A stretch of DNA of 64,000 bases, taken from assembly GCA_965224085.1 (NCBI GenBank), contig CBDCYI010000011.1, forward strand, positions 928,001 to 992,000, given 5' to 3'. Under the pieces are notes generated by a model. It was not told the origin of the DNA, did no database searches, and saw only the letters and a list, made by a program, of their open reading frames with translations. This DNA is from Candidatus Marinacidobacterales bacterium (GTDB lineage: Bacteria > Acidobacteriota > Vicinamibacteria > Marinacidobacterales > SMYC01). Position numbers and translations under genes: made by a program. Shown in pieces: positions 317-55,431 of the stretch (positions within the stretch are counted from its first letter, which is position 1; each line of letters starts with the position of its first letter).

Positions 317-2596
317 ATGACAGCGCGAGAAACGATGAGCGACCACGAGGCACCCGCGAGAAAAGAGGCCAAAGACGGCGTCCGTTTCGTCGCACCCTCG
401 GTGCTATTGCTGCTCGGTGTGACGCTCGTCAGCACCTATCTTATCGGTAAAGCGGAGTCCTTCAAGCCCGACTACATGGCGCGGGCCTTTTTGTTCGGGT
501 TCACGCTTGTCATATGGGCGCTCTTATTGGTCCTCACTTTCGTCCTCGGCCGGAATCTCATCAAGTTGTTTCTCGAGAGAAAGCGCTCGGCGCGCGGGGC
601 GAAATTCAAGACCAAGTTGGTCATCATCTTTATCAGCTTGGCCCTTTTGCCTTCGGCGCTCATCGTCCTCGTGGGAAGTCGCCTCATCTCGGCCTCGGTC
701 GACCGGTGGTTCTCTCATCCTGTCGAAGAGGTGCTCGTGGGAGCGCAGGATGTCGTGGAGCATTACTTTCAGGAAAAACAGGACCATGCGACGTTCTACG
801 CGCGCAGTCTTTCGGGAGAGATTGGAGAATCGAGGCTTTTGACGCCGGCTCGTCTCTCTCTTCTGAGCCGCACGATGAACGATCGTCTCAATCGCTACCG
901 TCTCGACATGGTCACGGTCCTGTCGGTCGATGGGCCGCTGTGGACGTCCGCGCGTCCGGGGCTTGCTCAATACAACCCGGACTCCACGATCCGTCTTGCC
1001 GAGACCGGCCTCCGCGGCGACGAAACCTTGCGCCTGGATTCCCTCGGGGATGGCACGCTTGTCCAATACGTCTCGCCGATCTTCAAAAGCGGAACACGGG
1101 ATGTCGAAGGGTCGGTCGTCGTGTCGTTTTTGATCCCCAAGAGCCTCGCGACGACGCTCGAGATGGTCAACCGCCAGGCCAACGTCTACCAACAGGCGGA
1201 AGCGCAAAAAGAGCCGATCCAGGATTTGTATCTCTCCTTTTTCGTGATGGTCTCACTTCTTCTCTTGCTGTCGTCCACCTGGATAGGCCTCTATCTCGCA
1301 AAGCGGATCACGGGCCCAGTCGGCCAACTCGTCGAGGCGACGGAGAGAGTGATGGCCGGCGATCTGGATCATCCTGTCGCGGGCGCAGCTTTAGACGAGC
1401 TCGGACTTCTGATGGAGTCCTTCAATCGCATGACGGCACAGCTCAAAGCGAGCCAGGATCACTTGGAGTCCTCGCGTCATGATCTGGAGATCAAGAACCG
1501 CGAGCTCGACCGTCGCCGCGCGTATATGGAAACCGTGCTCGAGAACATCACCACCGCGATCATTTCGCTCGATCGTGACGGCTTCGTGACGCGGTTGAAC
1601 GAATCTGCGATCCGAATGTTGCATCTCGATGCCGGGCTCGAAGGCCGCCACTATCGGGACGTGTTTGACGACAACGAGCGTTCTGCGCTGCGGGTCCTGC
1701 TCGATGAAGTTTCTCGTAAGGAGCTCCGGGCGCCGATCGAAGAGGAGCTCGATGTCACCGTCCAGGGACGCGAGCTTCACTTGTCCGTCTACGTCACGGC
1801 GCTGAGCCGTTCGGAAGATGTGCCTTCGGGGCTTCTCCTCGTCCTCGACGACCTCACGCAGTTGCTGCGTGCCCAAAAAGTCGCTGCGTGGCGAGAAGTT
1901 GCCCGCCGTCTCGCGCATGAGATCAAGAATCCGCTCACGCCGATCCAGTTATCTGCTCAACGCATACGCAAACACTTTCGCTCACGCTCAACCGATCTCG
2001 CGCGCATCCTGGAAGAGGGGACGGGCACGATCATCGAAGAAGTGGACTCGCTCAAGACGCTCGTCGATGAGTTTTCCCAATTCGCCCGGATGCCCTTGGT
2101 AGCGACAGAGCCCCAGGCGCTCACGCCGCTTCTCAAAGGAATGCTCGATCTCTATGACGGGCTATTTGCCGATCTCGTCATCACCAAGCGTTTCGCACGG
2201 GACGTGCCGCGGGTTCTCGTCGATGCCGAGCTTATCCGCCGCGTGTTCATCAACATCATCGACAATGCGGTGGAGGCGAGTGGCGAGAAAGGCGAGATCG
2301 TCATCGAGACCAGCTATGATCCCGAGCGTTCGATGGCCAGCGTCGAGATCGCGGATGGCGGGCCCGGGGTCTCCCCCGAGGAGCAAGACAAGCTCTTCTT
2401 GCCCTACTATTCGACGAAGCAACGCGGGAGCGGCCTCGGGCTCGCTATCGTCAAGCGCATCGTCGCCGAGCACCACGGTCACGTTCGGGTCGAGAAGAAC
2501 CTTCCGAAAGGGGCACGCTTCGTGATCGAGCTCCCGGTGGAGGTGACACCGTCGCACCAGGATGTCGAGCAGGCCTCGATCACCGGCAAGTCTTGA
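317..2596 (+). CDS. ntrY: NtrY-like membrane sensor histidine kinase (TMs, HAMP, PAS, HisKA, HATPase)
   Basis: AWREVARRLAHEIKNPLTPIQLSA H-box; N, G1 and G2 boxes (NIIDNA, DGGPG, GSGLGL); start could be 317 or 335. Confidence 0.88.
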   Translation: MTARETMSDHEAPARKEAKDGVRFVAPSVLLLLGVTLVSTYLIGKAESFKPDYMARAFLFGFTLVIWALLLVLTFVLGRNLIKLFLERKRSARGAKFKTKLVIIFISLALLPSALIVLVGSRLISASVDRWFSHPVEEVLVGAQDVVEHYFQEKQDHATFYARSLSGEIGESRLLTPARLSLLSRTMNDRLNRYRLDMVTVLSVDGPLWTSARPGLAQYNPDSTIRLAETGLRGDETLRLDSLGDGTLVQYVSPIFKSGTRDVEGSVVVSFLIPKSLATTLEMVNRQANVYQQAEAQKEPIQDLYLSFFVMVSLLLLLSSTWIGLYLAKRITGPVGQLVEATERVMAGDLDHPVAGAALDELGLLMESFNRMTAQLKASQDHLESSRHDLEIKNRELDRRRAYMETVLENITTAIISLDRDGFVTRLNESAIRMLHLDAGLEGRHYRDVFDDNERSALRVLLDEVSRKELRAPIEEELDVTVQGRELHLSVYVTALSRSEDVPSGLLLVLDDLTQLLRAQKVAAWREVARRLAHEIKNPLTPIQLSAQRIRKHFRSRSTDLARILEEGTGTIIEEVDSLKTLVDEFSQFARMPLVATEPQALTPLLKGMLDLYDGLFADLVITKRFARDVPRVLVDAELIRRVFINIIDNAVEASGEKGEIVIETSYDPERSMASVEIADGGPGVSPEEQDKLFLPYYSTKQRGSGLGLAIVKRIVAEHHGHVRVEKNLPKGARFVIELPVEVTPSHQDVEQASITGKS

Positions 2597-2624
2597 CGGC
2601 TGGCGACGGGACCGAGCAGCGCTA

Positions 2625-3977
2625 ATGTCCAAAGAACGAATTCTCGTCGTGGATGACGAGGCCGGGGTGCGCTCGTCGCTTCAAGGCATTCTCGAAGACG
2701 AAGGTTATCGCGTCGATACCGACTCGTCCGCCGAGGCCGCCTTGGCCCGGCTCTCTGGCGGCGGGTACGATCTCGTGCTTCTCGACATCTGGCTCCCCAA
2801 AATGGATGGGATCCAGGCTCTCGAAAAGATGATCGACGACGAGCTCGATACGCCCGTCATCATGATCTCGGGCCATGCCACCATTGAGAGCGCGGTCAAA
2901 GCGATTCAGCTCGGCGCTTACAACTTCGTGGAGAAGCCGCTTTCGCTCGACAAGACGATCATCGCGGTCCAGAACGCGCTTCGCCAAGGACGGCTCGAGC
3001 AGGAAAACCGCTATCTCCGCGAGCGCTTCGAAGCGCGTCAAGTCTTGATAGGGTCGAGTCCGGGCATGAGGGAGCTCAAAAAGCAAATCGGTATCGCCGC
3101 GCCCACCAATGGCAGAGTGCTGATCTTCGGAGAGAATGGAACAGGCAAGGAGGTCGTGGCGCGCTCGGTCCATACGCAATCGCTTCGGAGTAAGGCGAGC
3201 TTCGTGGAAGTCAATTGCGCGGCTATCCCCGAAGAGCTTATCGAAAGCGAGCTCTTCGGTCACGTGAAGGGCGCCTTTACCGGTGCTGTATCAGACAAGA
3301 TAGGGAAGTTCGAAGCGGCGGATGGAGGGACGTTGTTCCTCGATGAAGTGGCCGATATGAGCGTCAAGACTCAAGCCAAAGTGTTGCGCGTGCTCCAGGA
3401 GCAGAAGTTCCAGGCGGTGGGCAGCACCGAATCCATCGGCGTGGATTGCCGCGTGATCGCCGCGACGAACAAAATTCTCGAAGAAGAGATCCGTGCCGGA
3501 AACTTCAGAGAGGATCTCTATTTCCGGTTGAACGTAATCCCGTTCCACATGCCGCCCTTGCGTGAGCGTCGCGAAGACATCCCTGCCCTCGTGACGCATT
3601 TCGTCGCGGGCTTCTGCGCCGAGTACGGGAAGCAGACGAAAGATCCGACCGCGCAGGCGCTCAAGCGGCTCGTGGCCTATCAGTGGCCTGGCAATGTGCG
3701 CGAGCTAAAAAACGTCATCGAGCGGCTCGTCATCATGGTGACCGGGGACGTCATCGAAGTCTCGGATTTGCCTCTGGCGCTCACCCGCGGTGGCGACGGG
3801 CCCTTCGAAACGCTCGGAGACTTCCCGTCTCTCGCGAGCGCTCGCGAAGCCTTCGAAAGGCAGTTCATCGTCGGCAAGCTTCGCGAGAATAACGACAACG
3901 TGACCAGAACTGCCGAGGCCCTCGGTATCGAGCGCTCGCACCTTTATCGAAAGATGAAGGCGTATTCCATTAAGTGA
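2625..3977 (+). CDS. ntrX: NtrX-like sigma-54-dependent response regulator (REC-AAA+-HTH)
   Basis: ILVVDDE and LLDIWLP receiver; GENGTGKE Walker A; ESELFGH..GAFTGA; C-terminal Fis HTH; start trimmed to ATG 2625. Confidence 0.9.
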   Translation: MSKERILVVDDEAGVRSSLQGILEDEGYRVDTDSSAEAALARLSGGGYDLVLLDIWLPKMDGIQALEKMIDDELDTPVIMISGHATIESAVKAIQLGAYNFVEKPLSLDKTIIAVQNALRQGRLEQENRYLRERFEARQVLIGSSPGMRELKKQIGIAAPTNGRVLIFGENGTGKEVVARSVHTQSLRSKASFVEVNCAAIPEELIESELFGHVKGAFTGAVSDKIGKFEAADGGTLFLDEVADMSVKTQAKVLRVLQEQKFQAVGSTESIGVDCRVIAATNKILEEEIRAGNFREDLYFRLNVIPFHMPPLRERREDIPALVTHFVAGFCAEYGKQTKDPTAQALKRLVAYQWPGNVRELKNVIERLVIMVTGDVIEVSDLPLALTRGGDGPFETLGDFPSLASAREAFERQFIVGKLRENNDNVTRTAEALGIERSHLYRKMKAYSIK

Positions 3978-17011: not shown

Positions 17012-18250
17012 ATGGAATCAGAACACGCTGGGAAGGGCGAGGGTGCCGAGACGTTCGACACCATAGAATCGGCTCTCGAAGACATTCGTGCCGGCGAGAT
17101 GGTCATCGTCGTTGACGACGAGGATCGGGAGAACGAGGGCGATTTGACGATCGCGGCAGAGAAGGTCACTCCCGAGACCATCAATTTCATGGCCGCGCAT
17201 GGCCGCGGGCTCATCTGCTTGCCGATGACGGGTGAGCGGCTCGACGAGCTTCAAATCCCGTTGATGGTGACCGACAACACCTCGAATTACGGGACCGCCT
17301 TTTGCGTGTCCGTCGAGGCCAAAGTTGGCGTGAGCACCGGGATCTCGGCTGCGGATCGCGCGCGCACGGTGCTTGCGGCGGTTGATAGCGCCACGACGCC
17401 CGGCGACTTAGTGCGGCCGGGCCATATGTTCCCGCTGCGCGCGCGGCCGGGCGGTGTGTTGCAGCGATCGGGGCAGACTGAGGCTGCCGTGGATCTGGCG
17501 CGGATCGCGGGGCTCTATCCCGCCGGAGTCATTTGCGAAGTGATGAACGACGACGGCACGATGGCACGGGTCTCAGACCTCGAGCCATTCTCGAAAAAGC
17601 ACGGGATCAAGCTCGTCACGGTCGCGGATCTCATCCGCTACCGTTTGCGCACCGAGCGCCTCGTGACGCGCGTCTCCGAGGCACAGCTGCCGACAGATTA
17701 CGGGACGTTCCGCATCGCGGCCTTCGAGAGCGCCAATGACGGCGCCACGCACATGGCGCTCATCCTCGGTGACATCGTACCGGAGGAAGAAGTGCTCGTT
17801 CGCGTACACTCGCAATGCTTGACGGGAGAGGTCTTTCGTTCCAAACGCTGCGACTGCGGCGCGCAGCTCGAGGCGGCGCTGACGAAAATTGGAGAAGAAG
17901 GCAAAGGCGTCCTGCTCTACCTTCATCAAGAGGGCCGCGGGATCGGGCTCGCGAACAAGATTCGGGCATACGCGCTCCAGGACGAAGGCATGGACACGGT
18001 CGATGCCAACGAGAGCTTAGGATTCAAAGCCGATCAGCGTGAATACGGTATCGGCGCTCAAATTCTCGCGGAAATCGGGGTCCGCAACATTCGCCTTTTG
18101 ACCAACAACCCACGGAAGTTCGTTGCGCTCGAGGCCTACGGTCTTCACATCGCTGAGCGAGTTCCCATCGAGGTCGCCGCGAACGAAGTCTCGGAGTCCT
18201 ACTTGAAGACCAAGAAGGAGCGCATGGGTCACCTGCTCGAAAAGGTTTGA
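17012..18250 (+). CDS. ribBA: DHBP synthase / GTP cyclohydrolase II
   Basis: [48 protein letters not shown]. Confidence 0.97.
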
Positions 18251-52224: not shown

Positions 52225-52300
52225 TGGTGGACGGCACGGGGATCGAACCCGTGACCTCGGCATTGCGAACGCCGCGCTCTCCCAGCTGAGCTAGCCGCCC
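52225..52300 (-). tRNA. tRNA-Ala(CGC)
   Basis: 76-nt cloverleaf GGGCGGC...GCCGTCC-A-CCA; G3:U70; anticodon loop TT-CGC-AA; TTCGA T-loop; encoded CCA. Confidence 0.97.
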
Positions 52301-52424: not shown

Positions 52425-54260
52425 ATGAAAACGTGGAAGCTCGGAATTACGGCCGCCGTGCTCACCATCGCGGCAACGGCAGCGGGGGAGAGAACGCAGA
52501 AACCAGTGCTGCATGGGCGCCACTGGGTTGCGATTACCGGCAAGCCTCTCGGGGCGACAGCGGGCGCTTTGATGTTTCACAAAGGTGGCAACGCGGTCGA
52601 CGCGGCCTGCGCTATGCTCGGCGCGACCGCGACTATGTACGACTCGCTCGGGTGGGGCGGCGAAACGCAGACGCTCATCTACCACCCCGGCGAGAAGAAG
52701 GTCATCGGTATAAACGCTCTGGGGGTCGCGCCCGCCGGCGCCACTCCGAAATACTTCAAGAGTCAAGGGATGGATTTCCCTCCCGCTTATGGCCCTCTTG
52801 CGGCTGTCACGCCAGGAACACCTGGCGGTCTCATGGTCATGCTCGCCGAGTACGGCACGCTCACATTGAGCGACGTCCTCGGTCCTTCCATCGAGATGGC
52901 GGAGGGCTATTCGATCGAGGCACAGCTTGCGAACGCCATCGAGCGCGAGAAAGAGCGCATCCGTCAATGGCCCTATTCGCGGGAAACCTTCCTGACCCAT
53001 CCGGGGGAAGAGCGCGAGGCGCCTTATCCGGGTGAGATCTTCCGCCAGCCGATGCTCCAGGCCACGCTCGAGAAACTCGTAGAGGCGGAGGCGAAAGCCC
53101 TCGCGGCGGGAGCTTCGCGCAAGGAAGCGATCTACACCGCGTACGAGCGCTTCTACGAAGGTGATATCGCGGCGGAGTTCGTGCGGGGCTCGCAGGAACA
53201 GGGAGGCCTTCACACGAAAGAGGATCTCGCGGAGTGGAAGGTCCACATCGAAGAGCCGGTAATGACGACCTACAAGGACATCGAGGTCTACAAGCTCACG
53301 CACTGGGTGCAAGGGCCAGTTTTGAACCAGACGCTGAACATCCTCGAGGGGATCGACGTCAAGGCGATGGGCTACAACTCGAGCCGCTACATCCACACGC
53401 TCTATCAAGCGATGAACCTCGCTTTTGCGGACCGAGACTTCTACTACGGTGATCCGTACTTCCCGCCGGAGGAGCCGATCGAAGGGCTATTGTCCAAAGA
53501 CTACGCGGCGGAGCGACGAAAGCTCATCGATTGGGACCACAACGATCCTACCGTCAAGCCGGGCGACCCTTATCCACACCAAGGCGGCACGAACCCCTAC
53601 CTCGAATATCTAGAATCTTGGAGCAGCAAGCAGCCGAGCACAGAGGAAGACGAGCAACTCTTCGAGGAAGGTTTCTACGCGGGGACGACGTCGATCCAAG
53701 CGGCCGACAAAGAGGGTTGGGTGGTCTCGGTGACGCCGAGCGGGGGCTGGAATCCGGCCACGATCGCGGGGCGGACCGGGATCGGCATGAGTCAGCGGAT
53801 GCAGAGCTTCGTGCTGGATGCTCGCGTCAACCCCTACAACGTGCTCCAACCGGGAAAGCGTCCGCGCGCCACGCTCACTCCGAGTCTTGCGCTCAAAGAC
53901 GGTCGGCCTTTTCTTTCTTTTGCCGTGCAGGGAGGGGACTCTCAGGATCAGAACCTGCTGCAGTTTTTCCTGAACGTCGTCGAGTTCGGCATGAACGTTC
54001 AGGAAGCGGCGGAAGCGGCCAATTTCAACAGCTACCAGATGCAGAGCTCGTTTCGCGCTCACGAATCGCAACCCGGGCGCTTGCTTTTGAACGCGTCCGT
54101 CCCACCGTGGGTTTGCGATGGGCTCGTCGCCATGGGCTATGATCTCGAGTTTAGAGACCGCACCTCCGGCCCCATCAACGCGATCTTTTTCGACTGGAAG
54201 CACGGCACGATGTGGGGCGGCGCGAGCAACCACGGCGAAGATTACGGCATCGCTTGGTAG
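52425..54260 (+). CDS. ggt: Exported gamma-glutamyltransferase family protein
   Basis: RBS AAGGAG; signal peptide; GGNAVDAA, LAFADRD..YGDP, catalytic GTTSI, PGKRP. Confidence 0.92.
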   Translation: MKTWKLGITAAVLTIAATAAGERTQKPVLHGRHWVAITGKPLGATAGALMFHKGGNAVDAACAMLGATATMYDSLGWGGETQTLIYHPGEKKVIGINALGVAPAGATPKYFKSQGMDFPPAYGPLAAVTPGTPGGLMVMLAEYGTLTLSDVLGPSIEMAEGYSIEAQLANAIEREKERIRQWPYSRETFLTHPGEEREAPYPGEIFRQPMLQATLEKLVEAEAKALAAGASRKEAIYTAYERFYEGDIAAEFVRGSQEQGGLHTKEDLAEWKVHIEEPVMTTYKDIEVYKLTHWVQGPVLNQTLNILEGIDVKAMGYNSSRYIHTLYQAMNLAFADRDFYYGDPYFPPEEPIEGLLSKDYAAERRKLIDWDHNDPTVKPGDPYPHQGGTNPYLEYLESWSSKQPSTEEDEQLFEEGFYAGTTSIQAADKEGWVVSVTPSGGWNPATIAGRTGIGMSQRMQSFVLDARVNPYNVLQPGKRPRATLTPSLALKDGRPFLSFAVQGGDSQDQNLLQFFLNVVEFGMNVQEAAEAANFNSYQMQSSFRAHESQPGRLLLNASVPPWVCDGLVAMGYDLEFRDRTSGPINAIFFDWKHGTMWGGASNHGEDYGIAW

Positions 54261-54333
54261 TATGCTTGCAGCCTCGAGAACAGCGACGCGGCTCAACAAT
54301 GCTTAAATCGGCGCCTAAGATGACGAGGAAAGC

Positions 54334-55431
54334 GTGATCAAACACTGGAGTTTCGTGGCTTGGTTTTTTGCGGCGACCCTAGCGGCGCCGCTTCTCGCGC
54401 AGGACGTTTTCGATCCGCTCGACCCGATGGATGACGACGAGCAGACCGGTCTCGAGGTCGGGACCGCCATTCCGGACTTCCGTGCCATCGATCAAAACGG
54501 TAAGGCTTTGGATTTCGATGCCGTGAAAGGTCCCAACGGTGCGGTCTTCTTGTTTCACCGCTCGGCGGATTGGTGACCCTATTGCAAAACCCAGCTCGTG
54601 GAGCTGGAAAACTCCTACGACACGTTCAAAGCCCAAGGGCTCGGCGTCGCCGCGATCAGCTACGACACGCCGGACATACTCGCGCACTTCTCGGAGCGGA
54701 TGGGAGGTTTTCGCTACCCGCTTCTCGCAGACCCCGACTCCAAGATGATTCGTGCATTCGGCATCTTGAACCGTAACGTAGCCGAAGGCCACGCTTTCTT
54801 TGGTATGGCGCGACCGGGCACGTTCGTCGTCGATGCGAACGGTATCATCACGTCTAAGTTTTTCGAGCCCGGGCACCGGCAGCGCTTGACCGCGGATAGT
54901 CTCTTGGTCCGCGAGTTCGGCGCGGGCGGTGGTACCCGCTTTTCGATCGTCACCGATCATTTGAAGCTTACCGCCTATCCCGCGCAAGACGAGGCGCGGC
55001 GCGGGAACCGTATTACCCTCGTGATCGAGCTCGATCTGCCGCCGAAGATGCACGTCTACGCGCCCGGCGTTGAAGGCTATCGCCCTGTCTCCGTCGCGGT
55101 TTCCCAATCCCAATATTTGGCGGTGCACGAGACGATCTTCCCCGAGTCGGAGATCATGCACCTACCGGCGATTCAAGAGAGCGTTCCCGTCTTTCACGGG
55201 TCGATCCGCATCCTGCAAGACGTAACGCTCTCGCCTCGGCTTCCGGGCTACGATCAGCCGGACGTTACAGAGCTCGAGATTCCGGCGACGTTCTCGTATC
55301 AGGCCTGTGACGATGTGGTGTGTTATCTCCCCACGGAGCTTCCCGTAAAGTTCAAGTTGGCTCTTCACCCGCACGACGGGAAGCGCGCTCCGGAAGAAAT
55401 CCGCCACAAACCGAGCTCATCGAGTCGTTGA
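54334..55431 (+). CDS. Predicted selenoprotein: exported AhpC/TSA-like redoxin (UxxC) fused to a DsbD-N-like domain
   Basis: 80-aa and 277-aa ORFs are in frame, separated only by TGA 54574-54576 in FHRSADW-U-PYC; AAISYD, YPLLADP, RPGTFVVD; C-terminal HVYAP..YQACDDVVCY. Confidence 0.85.
54591..54607 (+). promoter_or_regulatory. Candidate bacterial SECIS hairpin
   Basis: CCAGCTC-GTG-GAGCTGG perfect stem with a G-containing loop, starting 14 nt after the UGA. Confidence 0.6.

Follow-up and report, generated by a model that had tools for sequence, protein, structure and literature searches.

The window, i.e., the whole stretch of 64,000 nucleotides that was analysed, contains a reading frame that begins with a GTG codon behind a Shine-Dalgarno-like GAGGA (54325-54329) and holds one in-frame stop, a TGA within the peptide FHRSADW-U-PYCKTQL (Table 1). 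Read with translation table 11, the frame falls into an 80-aa ORF (54334-54576) and a 277-aa ORF (54598-55431), both in the same frame. The initial annotation had taken this pair of ORFs, split by a single TGA within RSADW-U-PYC, for a hidden selenoprotein with a signal-peptide-like N-terminus, a UxxC redoxin domain and a DsbD_N domain with a Cys pair, and both the sequence and the architecture are as it described. Full-length homologues with Cys in the place of Sec (338-378 aa) could be aligned end to end with the complete frame. The gene lies 73 nt downstream of a gamma-glutamyltranspeptidase gene (ggt; PF01019, 342 bits) that ends at 54260 on the same strand, and the gene downstream of it, encoding a DUF72 protein, is convergent.

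A hydrophobic N-terminus was present in all 12 aligned homologues. Given the signal-peptide-like N-terminus and the periplasmic location of DsbD alpha domains, the selenoprotein is predicted to be exported, which is the most likely location.

Table 1 Features of the selenoprotein gene and other elements of the window (positions are those of the window).
Feature	Position	Strand	Details
V_AS9 (Vibrio antisense RNA AS9), Rfam match	17145-17248	−	55.3 bits vs gathering score 50; unexpected for Acidobacteriota
tRNA-Ala (anticodon cgc)	52225-52300	−	Just upstream of ggt
Selenoprotein CDS	54334-55431	+	365 residues + stop; GTG start at 54334, TGA end at 55429-55431
Predicted signal peptide	54334-54402	+	Residues 1-23: K3/H4, hydrophobic core, LLA|QD; by sequence inspection
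AhpC/TSA thioredoxin-fold redoxin domain	54457-54852	+	Residues 42-173; PF00578, E = 2.4e-28, 99 bits
Sec codon UGA (U81)	54574-54576	+	Position 1 of UxxC; from homologue alignments
Cys84 codon	54583-54585	+	Second residue of UxxC; invariant in 12/12 aligned sequences
SECIS-like hairpin CCAGCTC-GTG-GAGCTGG	54591-54607	+	7-bp stem, GUG loop, 14 nt past UGA, within the CDS
DsbD_N (DsbD alpha-like) domain	54991-55338	+	Residues 220-335; PF11412, 31.5 bits, cut-off 25
Cys pair C325-x4-C330	55306-55323	+	YQACDDVVCY, residues 322-331; codons 55306-55308 (C325) and 55321-55323 (C330); invariant in homologue alignments

Redoxin domain, DsbD_N domain and gene neighbourhood

The redoxin domain also matched the Redoxin family (PF08534, 62 bits), and its best solved relatives by sequence were ResA and AhpE. 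In the alignment with the top solved match, Bacillus subtilis ResA (E = 9.6e-12), the WCxxC of ResA lies over W80-U81-P-Y-C84. Peroxiredoxins have a conserved catalytic Arg, which in the alignment with the 1-Cys peroxiredoxin AhpE falls on P162 (the Pro of ARPGTF); the adjacent R161 is Y, N or Q in homologues, and this Arg is absent from the redoxin domain in both the AhpE and the homologue alignments. The Pro, the Thr and the peroxidatic Cys of the AhpE motif correspond to R76, U81 and C84, respectively, and the alignment revealed no PxxxTxxC(U), the active-site motif of peroxiredoxins (PMC13188914). On the ResA and AhpE alignments, the centre is a UxxC of thioredoxin type that fails the peroxiredoxin signature, and the sequence comparisons strongly support assigning the domain to the ResA/TlpA type of thiol:disulfide oxidoreductases, not to the canonical peroxiredoxins. 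None of the 13 NCBIfam models matched by the protein, peroxiredoxin models included, reached its curated cut-off, so the NCBI naming models miss the selenoprotein; the scores of the ResA/DsbE (CcmG) equivalog models were 44.7, 20.1 and 17.7 bits, below cut-offs of 170, 123 and 359 bits, respectively.

These alignments bear on whether the UxxC centre could be the site of a glutathione peroxidase-like, selenium-dependent peroxidase activity in the periplasm, in a cycle where peroxide would generate a selenenic acid, Cys84 would convert it to a selenylsulfide, and the DsbD alpha-like domain would recycle the centre. Such a function is suggested by the AhpC/TSA fold, by the position of Sec at the reactive-residue site of thioredoxin-fold peroxidases (from the AhpE and ResA alignments), and by the envelope peroxiredoxin pathway that DsbD-family proteins supply in Caulobacter (PMC3322552). 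The missing peroxiredoxin signature, with R76 and U81 in place of the motif Pro and Thr and a Pro opposite the catalytic Arg, and the lack of any NCBIfam peroxiredoxin model at cut-off argue against it, as does the Caulobacter protein PrxL, which showed no peroxidase activity (PMC3322552), though it belongs to another CDD family. We consider a peroxidase cycle of this kind a serious, though unlikely, alternative.

The C-terminal PF11412 domain was matched by all 29 members of the selenoprotein's family (31.5-34.2 bits vs a gathering score of 25), and C325 and C330 were both invariant in alignments of 12, 41 and 29 sequences. The only DsbD_TM (PF02683) protein of the genome is a separate, full DsbD of 576 aa with alpha, beta and gamma domains. 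Its alpha domain shares the YQACDDxVCY motif with the selenoprotein and matched the DsbD_N domain by BLASTP with E = 9e-8 and 24% identity, and this single DsbD is a possible electron donor. Pfam detected no transmembrane beta domain (PF02683) in the selenoprotein itself. No solved structure matched a sequence profile of the C-terminal domain at E ≤ 1, so the link to DsbD alpha draws on the Pfam match and the single BLASTP match at 24% identity.

Three database relatives of 615-616 aa (P0006, P0011, and P0015) have a DsbD_N domain at ~140-245, a full AhpC-TSA domain at ~290-420 and a second AhpC-TSA stretch, a layout that suggests either modules in tandem or duplicate, or gene calls that ran on over adjacent paralogues. 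Two paralogues (L106 and L109) lie side by side on the same contig.

The proximity of ggt had led the initial annotation to propose a functional coupling of the selenoprotein to the exported gamma-glutamyltranspeptidase, e.g., via glutathione-derived thiols. The shared strand and the 73-nt gap would be compatible with this, as would the lack of any terminator-like site called between the two genes, in a promoter and terminator scan that was at chance level. The arrangement was not found elsewhere: a tblastn search with GGT of 94 loci with 1.5-3 kb flanks (a few of them cut by contig ends) matched only the locus of the window, and none of the ten genes upstream of other Sec forms encodes GGT. 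These ten neighbours were all different, nine having unrelated domains, namely recombinase, TPR, MFS, FAD oxidase, DnaE, AlkZ, PMT_2, ADH and GHL10, and the tenth without a Pfam match. Clustering of the ORFs from 85 loci revealed lineage-specific neighbours only, the largest cluster being an ABC-ATPase-like ORF found in 21 of them, and neither these loci nor the ten upstream genes included a conserved operon partner that hints at the substrate. Because ggt adjoins the gene only here, the upstream genes differ, and no neighbour is conserved, the glutathione link is unsupported, and we rejected this very unlikely coupling for want of synteny outside the window's genome.

The in-frame UGA and its SECIS-like hairpin

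Homologues of the selenoprotein were collected in three ways to profile the codon at position 81. Among 41 related genomes, 14 (the window's genome included) had a full-architecture orthologue at E ≤ 1e-90, and each of the 14 had TGA at the RSADW_P[YF]C codon; ten of these were intact end to end, one was cut by a contig end, and three (from G003, G004, and G018) had extra frameshifts or stops. The genome_contigs set, comprising 80 loci kept out of 165 relatives, had TGA in 13 and TGC or TGT (Cys) in 67, and is skewed to Cys because one search pattern had Cys in the place of Sec. A phylum sample of 301 evenly drawn genomes, with only six candidates scored per genome at E ≤ 1e-60, yielded matches in 18 genomes; TGA was at the motif in 19 of 19 loci, which came from 16 of the 18 matching genomes, the unpublished G064 being left out of the loci. 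The natural Sec:Cys ratio is given by neither the genome_contigs set nor the phylum sample, and the unpublished genomes G027 and G064 were counted only in the 41-genome and phylum-sample tallies. The codon was retained as TGA down to ~37% identity, with the flanks on either side in frame and conserved, and all 11 aligned full-length database proteins (338-378 aa) had Cys opposite U81. The homologues thus have UGA or Cys at codon 81, a comparison that the initial annotation had suggested, with Arg in one degraded copy.

That degraded copy (L038, from G002 of the same genus) is divergent and combines CGA (Arg) at the Sec codon with an upstream frameshift and an in-frame TAG. Given this copy and the disruptions in G003, G004, and G018, some lineages may be losing the gene or able to do without it, or else these assemblies contain errors.

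The 7-bp hairpin that had been noted 14 nt past the TGA is exact, and when folded alone has a free energy of about -10 to -11.5 kcal/mol. The 64-kb window has 53 perfect 7-bp hairpins with loops of 3-8 nt, corresponding to ~0.02 expected per 23-nt interval. The 76-nt stretch around the hairpin folded no better than shuffled sequences (z = 0.13), so it is the hairpin itself and its conservation that stand out, rather than any stability of the wider region. In an alignment of 36 Sec forms (a set of 19 Sec sequences was also analysed), 98% of the hairpin cells were paired, and compensatory changes were detected at two pairs. The outermost pair (18:34) was CG in 21 sequences, GC in 14 and UA in one, and never unpaired, and the fourth pair (21:31) was GC in 33 and AU in three. 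Pairing fell to 14-44% when the partner was shifted by 1-3 columns. The first base of the loop was G in all 36.

All 13 Sec forms compared had the complete 7-pair hairpin, but only 5 of 64 Cys forms did; of the seven Cys forms with an identical TQLVEL peptide, just two had it. This pattern indicates that the constraint on the nucleotides is tied to the UGA and does not stem from the protein sequence. With its loop of 3 nt and its lack of a bulged U, the hairpin is unlike the SECIS of Escherichia coli fdhF. Bacterial SECIS elements have been described as in-CDS stem-loops that closely follow the UGA on its 3′ side and have a G in a small apical loop (PMC1088965), and the hairpin has this form, with its in-CDS position, its 14-nt distance and its GUG loop. 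Two Cys forms with a complete hairpin (L095 and L096) adjoin Sec forms on the tree, a position in keeping with the fossil SECIS elements that Zhang and co-workers have described. At the Rfam gathering threshold, no SECIS family was detected in the window; the only matches, elsewhere in it, were the tRNA and the V_AS9 element (Table 1).

The genome encodes the machinery that selenocysteine insertion calls for, a check that the initial annotation had proposed: selB (365 bits), selA (550 bits), selD (280 bits) and tRNA-Sec (selC; 74 bits) all scored above curated cut-offs, and ARAGORN called a tRNA-SeC with anticodon tca.

The selD gene encodes a 742-aa fusion (L010, G000:C5:1543662-1547573, ORF 1399-3627, minus strand), in which an N-terminal pyridine nucleotide-disulphide oxidoreductase domain (PF07992) is followed by AIRS and AIRS_C. 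Three more AhpC/TSA-like matches with one in-frame TGA each were detected in the genome (G000:C11:1276995-1277429, minus strand; C11:324809-325258, plus strand; and C4:1444443-1444874, plus strand), and the related genomes have many TGA-bearing AhpC/TSA-like paralogues. This lineage seems to have many selenoproteins of the redoxin type.

A true stop at the TGA would leave either a pseudogene or two genes, one for an exported peptide of 80 aa and the other for a protein of 277 aa with its start at GTG 54598. Table 11 yields precisely these two ORFs, the public gene calls of relatives are 268-277 aa long, and some relatives' copies have further disruptions. Yet the second ORF would have neither a signal peptide nor the whole active-site strand, and a stop is at odds with the persistence of TGA at one codon between conserved in-frame flanks, with Cys at that codon in 67 homologues, and with hairpin covariation confined to the TGA forms, which together make this reading highly improbable. 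The chance that an error in sequencing or assembly turned TGC or TGT, one base away, into this TGA is negligible, as the TGA was confirmed without any differing letter in contigs of runs from three studies (one run perhaps being the source sample) and recurs at the same codon in 14 + 13 + 19 independently assembled loci, the first two sets overlapping somewhat. The selenoprotein stretch was listed in no RNA run. Given the alignment of UGA with Cys, the covarying hairpin and the Sec machinery in the genome, the claim of a hidden selenoprotein is well founded, and we conclude that 54334-55431 is very probably a genuine selenoprotein gene.

Phylogeny and database annotation

On a tree built from 35 Sec and 64 Cys homologues (99 in total), seven switches between Sec and Cys are needed, and well-supported branches make at least five of them unavoidable. 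The window's protein falls inside an all-Sec clade of ten. Trees were built without L049 and L058, which are shortened by frameshifts, and alignment A5 without L128 and L129, which are near-duplicates of L126. The family is almost confined to records labelled Acidobacteriota. Five loci (L055, L070, L078, L105, and L113) come from metagenome-assembled genomes labelled Bordetella, Verrucomicrobiia, Saccharimonadales or Bifidobacterium and are nested among Acidobacteriota on the tree, and their odd labels are probably a binning or labelling artefact. One genome (G270) has four near-identical copies of the Sec form (L126-L129), with tree distances of 0.00-0.01.

As had been predicted from the split reading frame, gene callers truncate the protein: the database relatives of the Sec forms are proteins of 268-277 aa that are unnamed or called "hypothetical". 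An exported selenoprotein family of a major soil phylum is hence systematically mis-annotated, its Sec forms being recorded without signal peptide or active site, and correcting the annotation would change selenoproteome counts for Acidobacteriota. The family also offers many natural Sec/Cys pairs, Cys forms with fossil SECIS included, in which the benefit of selenium in an oxidising envelope could be tested.

Proposed electron relay and comparison with known systems

Considering all evidence, our preferred reading, to which we assign a probability of roughly 0.8, is that a single gene encodes an exported selenoprotein of ~340 mature residues, in which a Sec-redoxin is fused to a DsbD alpha-like domain with which it would form a Sec-Cys relay. 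The decoding of the UGA as Sec at a UxxC centre, and the fusion of this centre to a DsbD alpha-like domain with CxxxxC, are strongly supported. The UGA at 54574-54576 is most probably decoded under the direction of the hairpin at 54591-54607, using the SelA, SelB, SelD, and tRNA-Sec of the genome. In all four loci of a sister family, the same modules occur in split form, i.e., a Sec-redoxin gene with the same motif followed immediately by a separate DsbD_N gene with a signal peptide, and this adjacency suggests that the redoxin and DsbD_N modules work together. We infer that U81/C84 and C325/C330 exchange electrons via a transient Sec-Cys selenylsulfide, by analogy with the electron exchange between DsbD alpha and proteins of thioredoxin fold (PMC3322552); such a relay is made plausible by the split genes of related genomes.

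With regard to direction, the order we prefer, though at about even odds, would run from DsbD to the alpha-like domain and on to the Sec-redoxin as terminal reductant of oxidised envelope substrates, which may be disulfides, sulfenic acids, or peroxides. The opposite order, from the redoxin through the alpha-like domain to other clients, appears less likely. Similarly tentative is the broader proposal that Acidobacteriota widely employ a Sec-redoxin and a DsbD-alpha-like module, fused or encoded by adjacent genes, as a selenium-dependent reductive pathway of the envelope not described before, in which a dedicated alpha-type adaptor would take electrons from DsbD and pass them to the Sec centre. 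If true, the Sec centre would detoxify peroxides or repair oxidised envelope thiols far faster than the Cys versions, and the repeated Sec/Cys switches (at least five on the tree) would track the availability of selenium in soil.

The redoxin half of the protein has known counterparts. Prx-like selenoproteins with a thioredoxin-like UxxC in PF00578 have been reported since 2005 (PMC1088965, PMC1794560, PMC13188914), and are listed as predicted with high confidence in a 2026 review (PMC13188914). The novelty had therefore been overrated, as selenoproteins of the UxxC Prx-like kind have long been known as a predicted family and no new category is opened here. With its PF00578 domain and UxxC, the protein agrees with the definition of the Prx-like thiol:disulfide oxidoreductase family given in PMC13188914. 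It shares with the members of Zhang and Gladyshev (PF00578, UxxC/UxxU) the AhpC/TSA fold, a UxxC in place of TxxU and the existence of Cys homologues, the likeness being drawn from this PF00578 and UxxC definition, and differs from them by its signal peptide and C-terminal DsbD_N domain. In the portions of the literature available to us, we found no description of an AhpC/TSA-DsbD_N selenoprotein fusion, of its split-gene counterpart, or of a wide occurrence in Acidobacteriota, all of which the supplementary tables of selenoproteome surveys may list. Judged by its sequence, the redoxin half would be of a known kind, and the DsbD_N fusion an extra domain not found described.

Another selenoprotein named as a DsbD-type fusion is TsoB (NF045694), a rhodanese/DsbD fusion-like protein with a UxxxxU motif (PMC13188914). 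It differs by its rhodanese domain and UxxxxU, and NF045694 is absent among the 13 NCBIfam matches of the protein analysed here. The redoxin domain resembles ResA/TlpA/CcmG in that the WCxxC of ResA aligns with W80-U81-x-x-C84, whereas Sec replaces the first Cys, an extra domain is present, and the NCBIfam ResA/DsbE scores are far below cut-off.

Like the alpha domain of DsbD/ScsB, the C-terminal domain matches PF11412, and it shares the Cys pair of YQACDDxVCY with the alpha domain of the genome's own DsbD. In DsbD, the alpha domain reduces exported thioredoxin-fold proteins (PMC3322552). Unlike DsbD/ScsB, the selenoprotein has neither a transmembrane beta domain nor a gamma domain, and its thioredoxin-fold partner is covalently fused and Sec-bearing. 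In the ScsB-TlpA-PprX/PrxL pathway of Caulobacter, a DsbD-family alpha domain keeps exported Prx-type and Prx-like proteins reduced (PMC3322552). As described there, that pathway consists of separate Cys proteins, whereas here the donor-like and acceptor-like modules are joined in one chain (or, in relatives, encoded side by side) with Sec in the active site, providing a natural covalent donor-acceptor pair for the study of DsbD alpha-type domains with their thioredoxin-fold partners.
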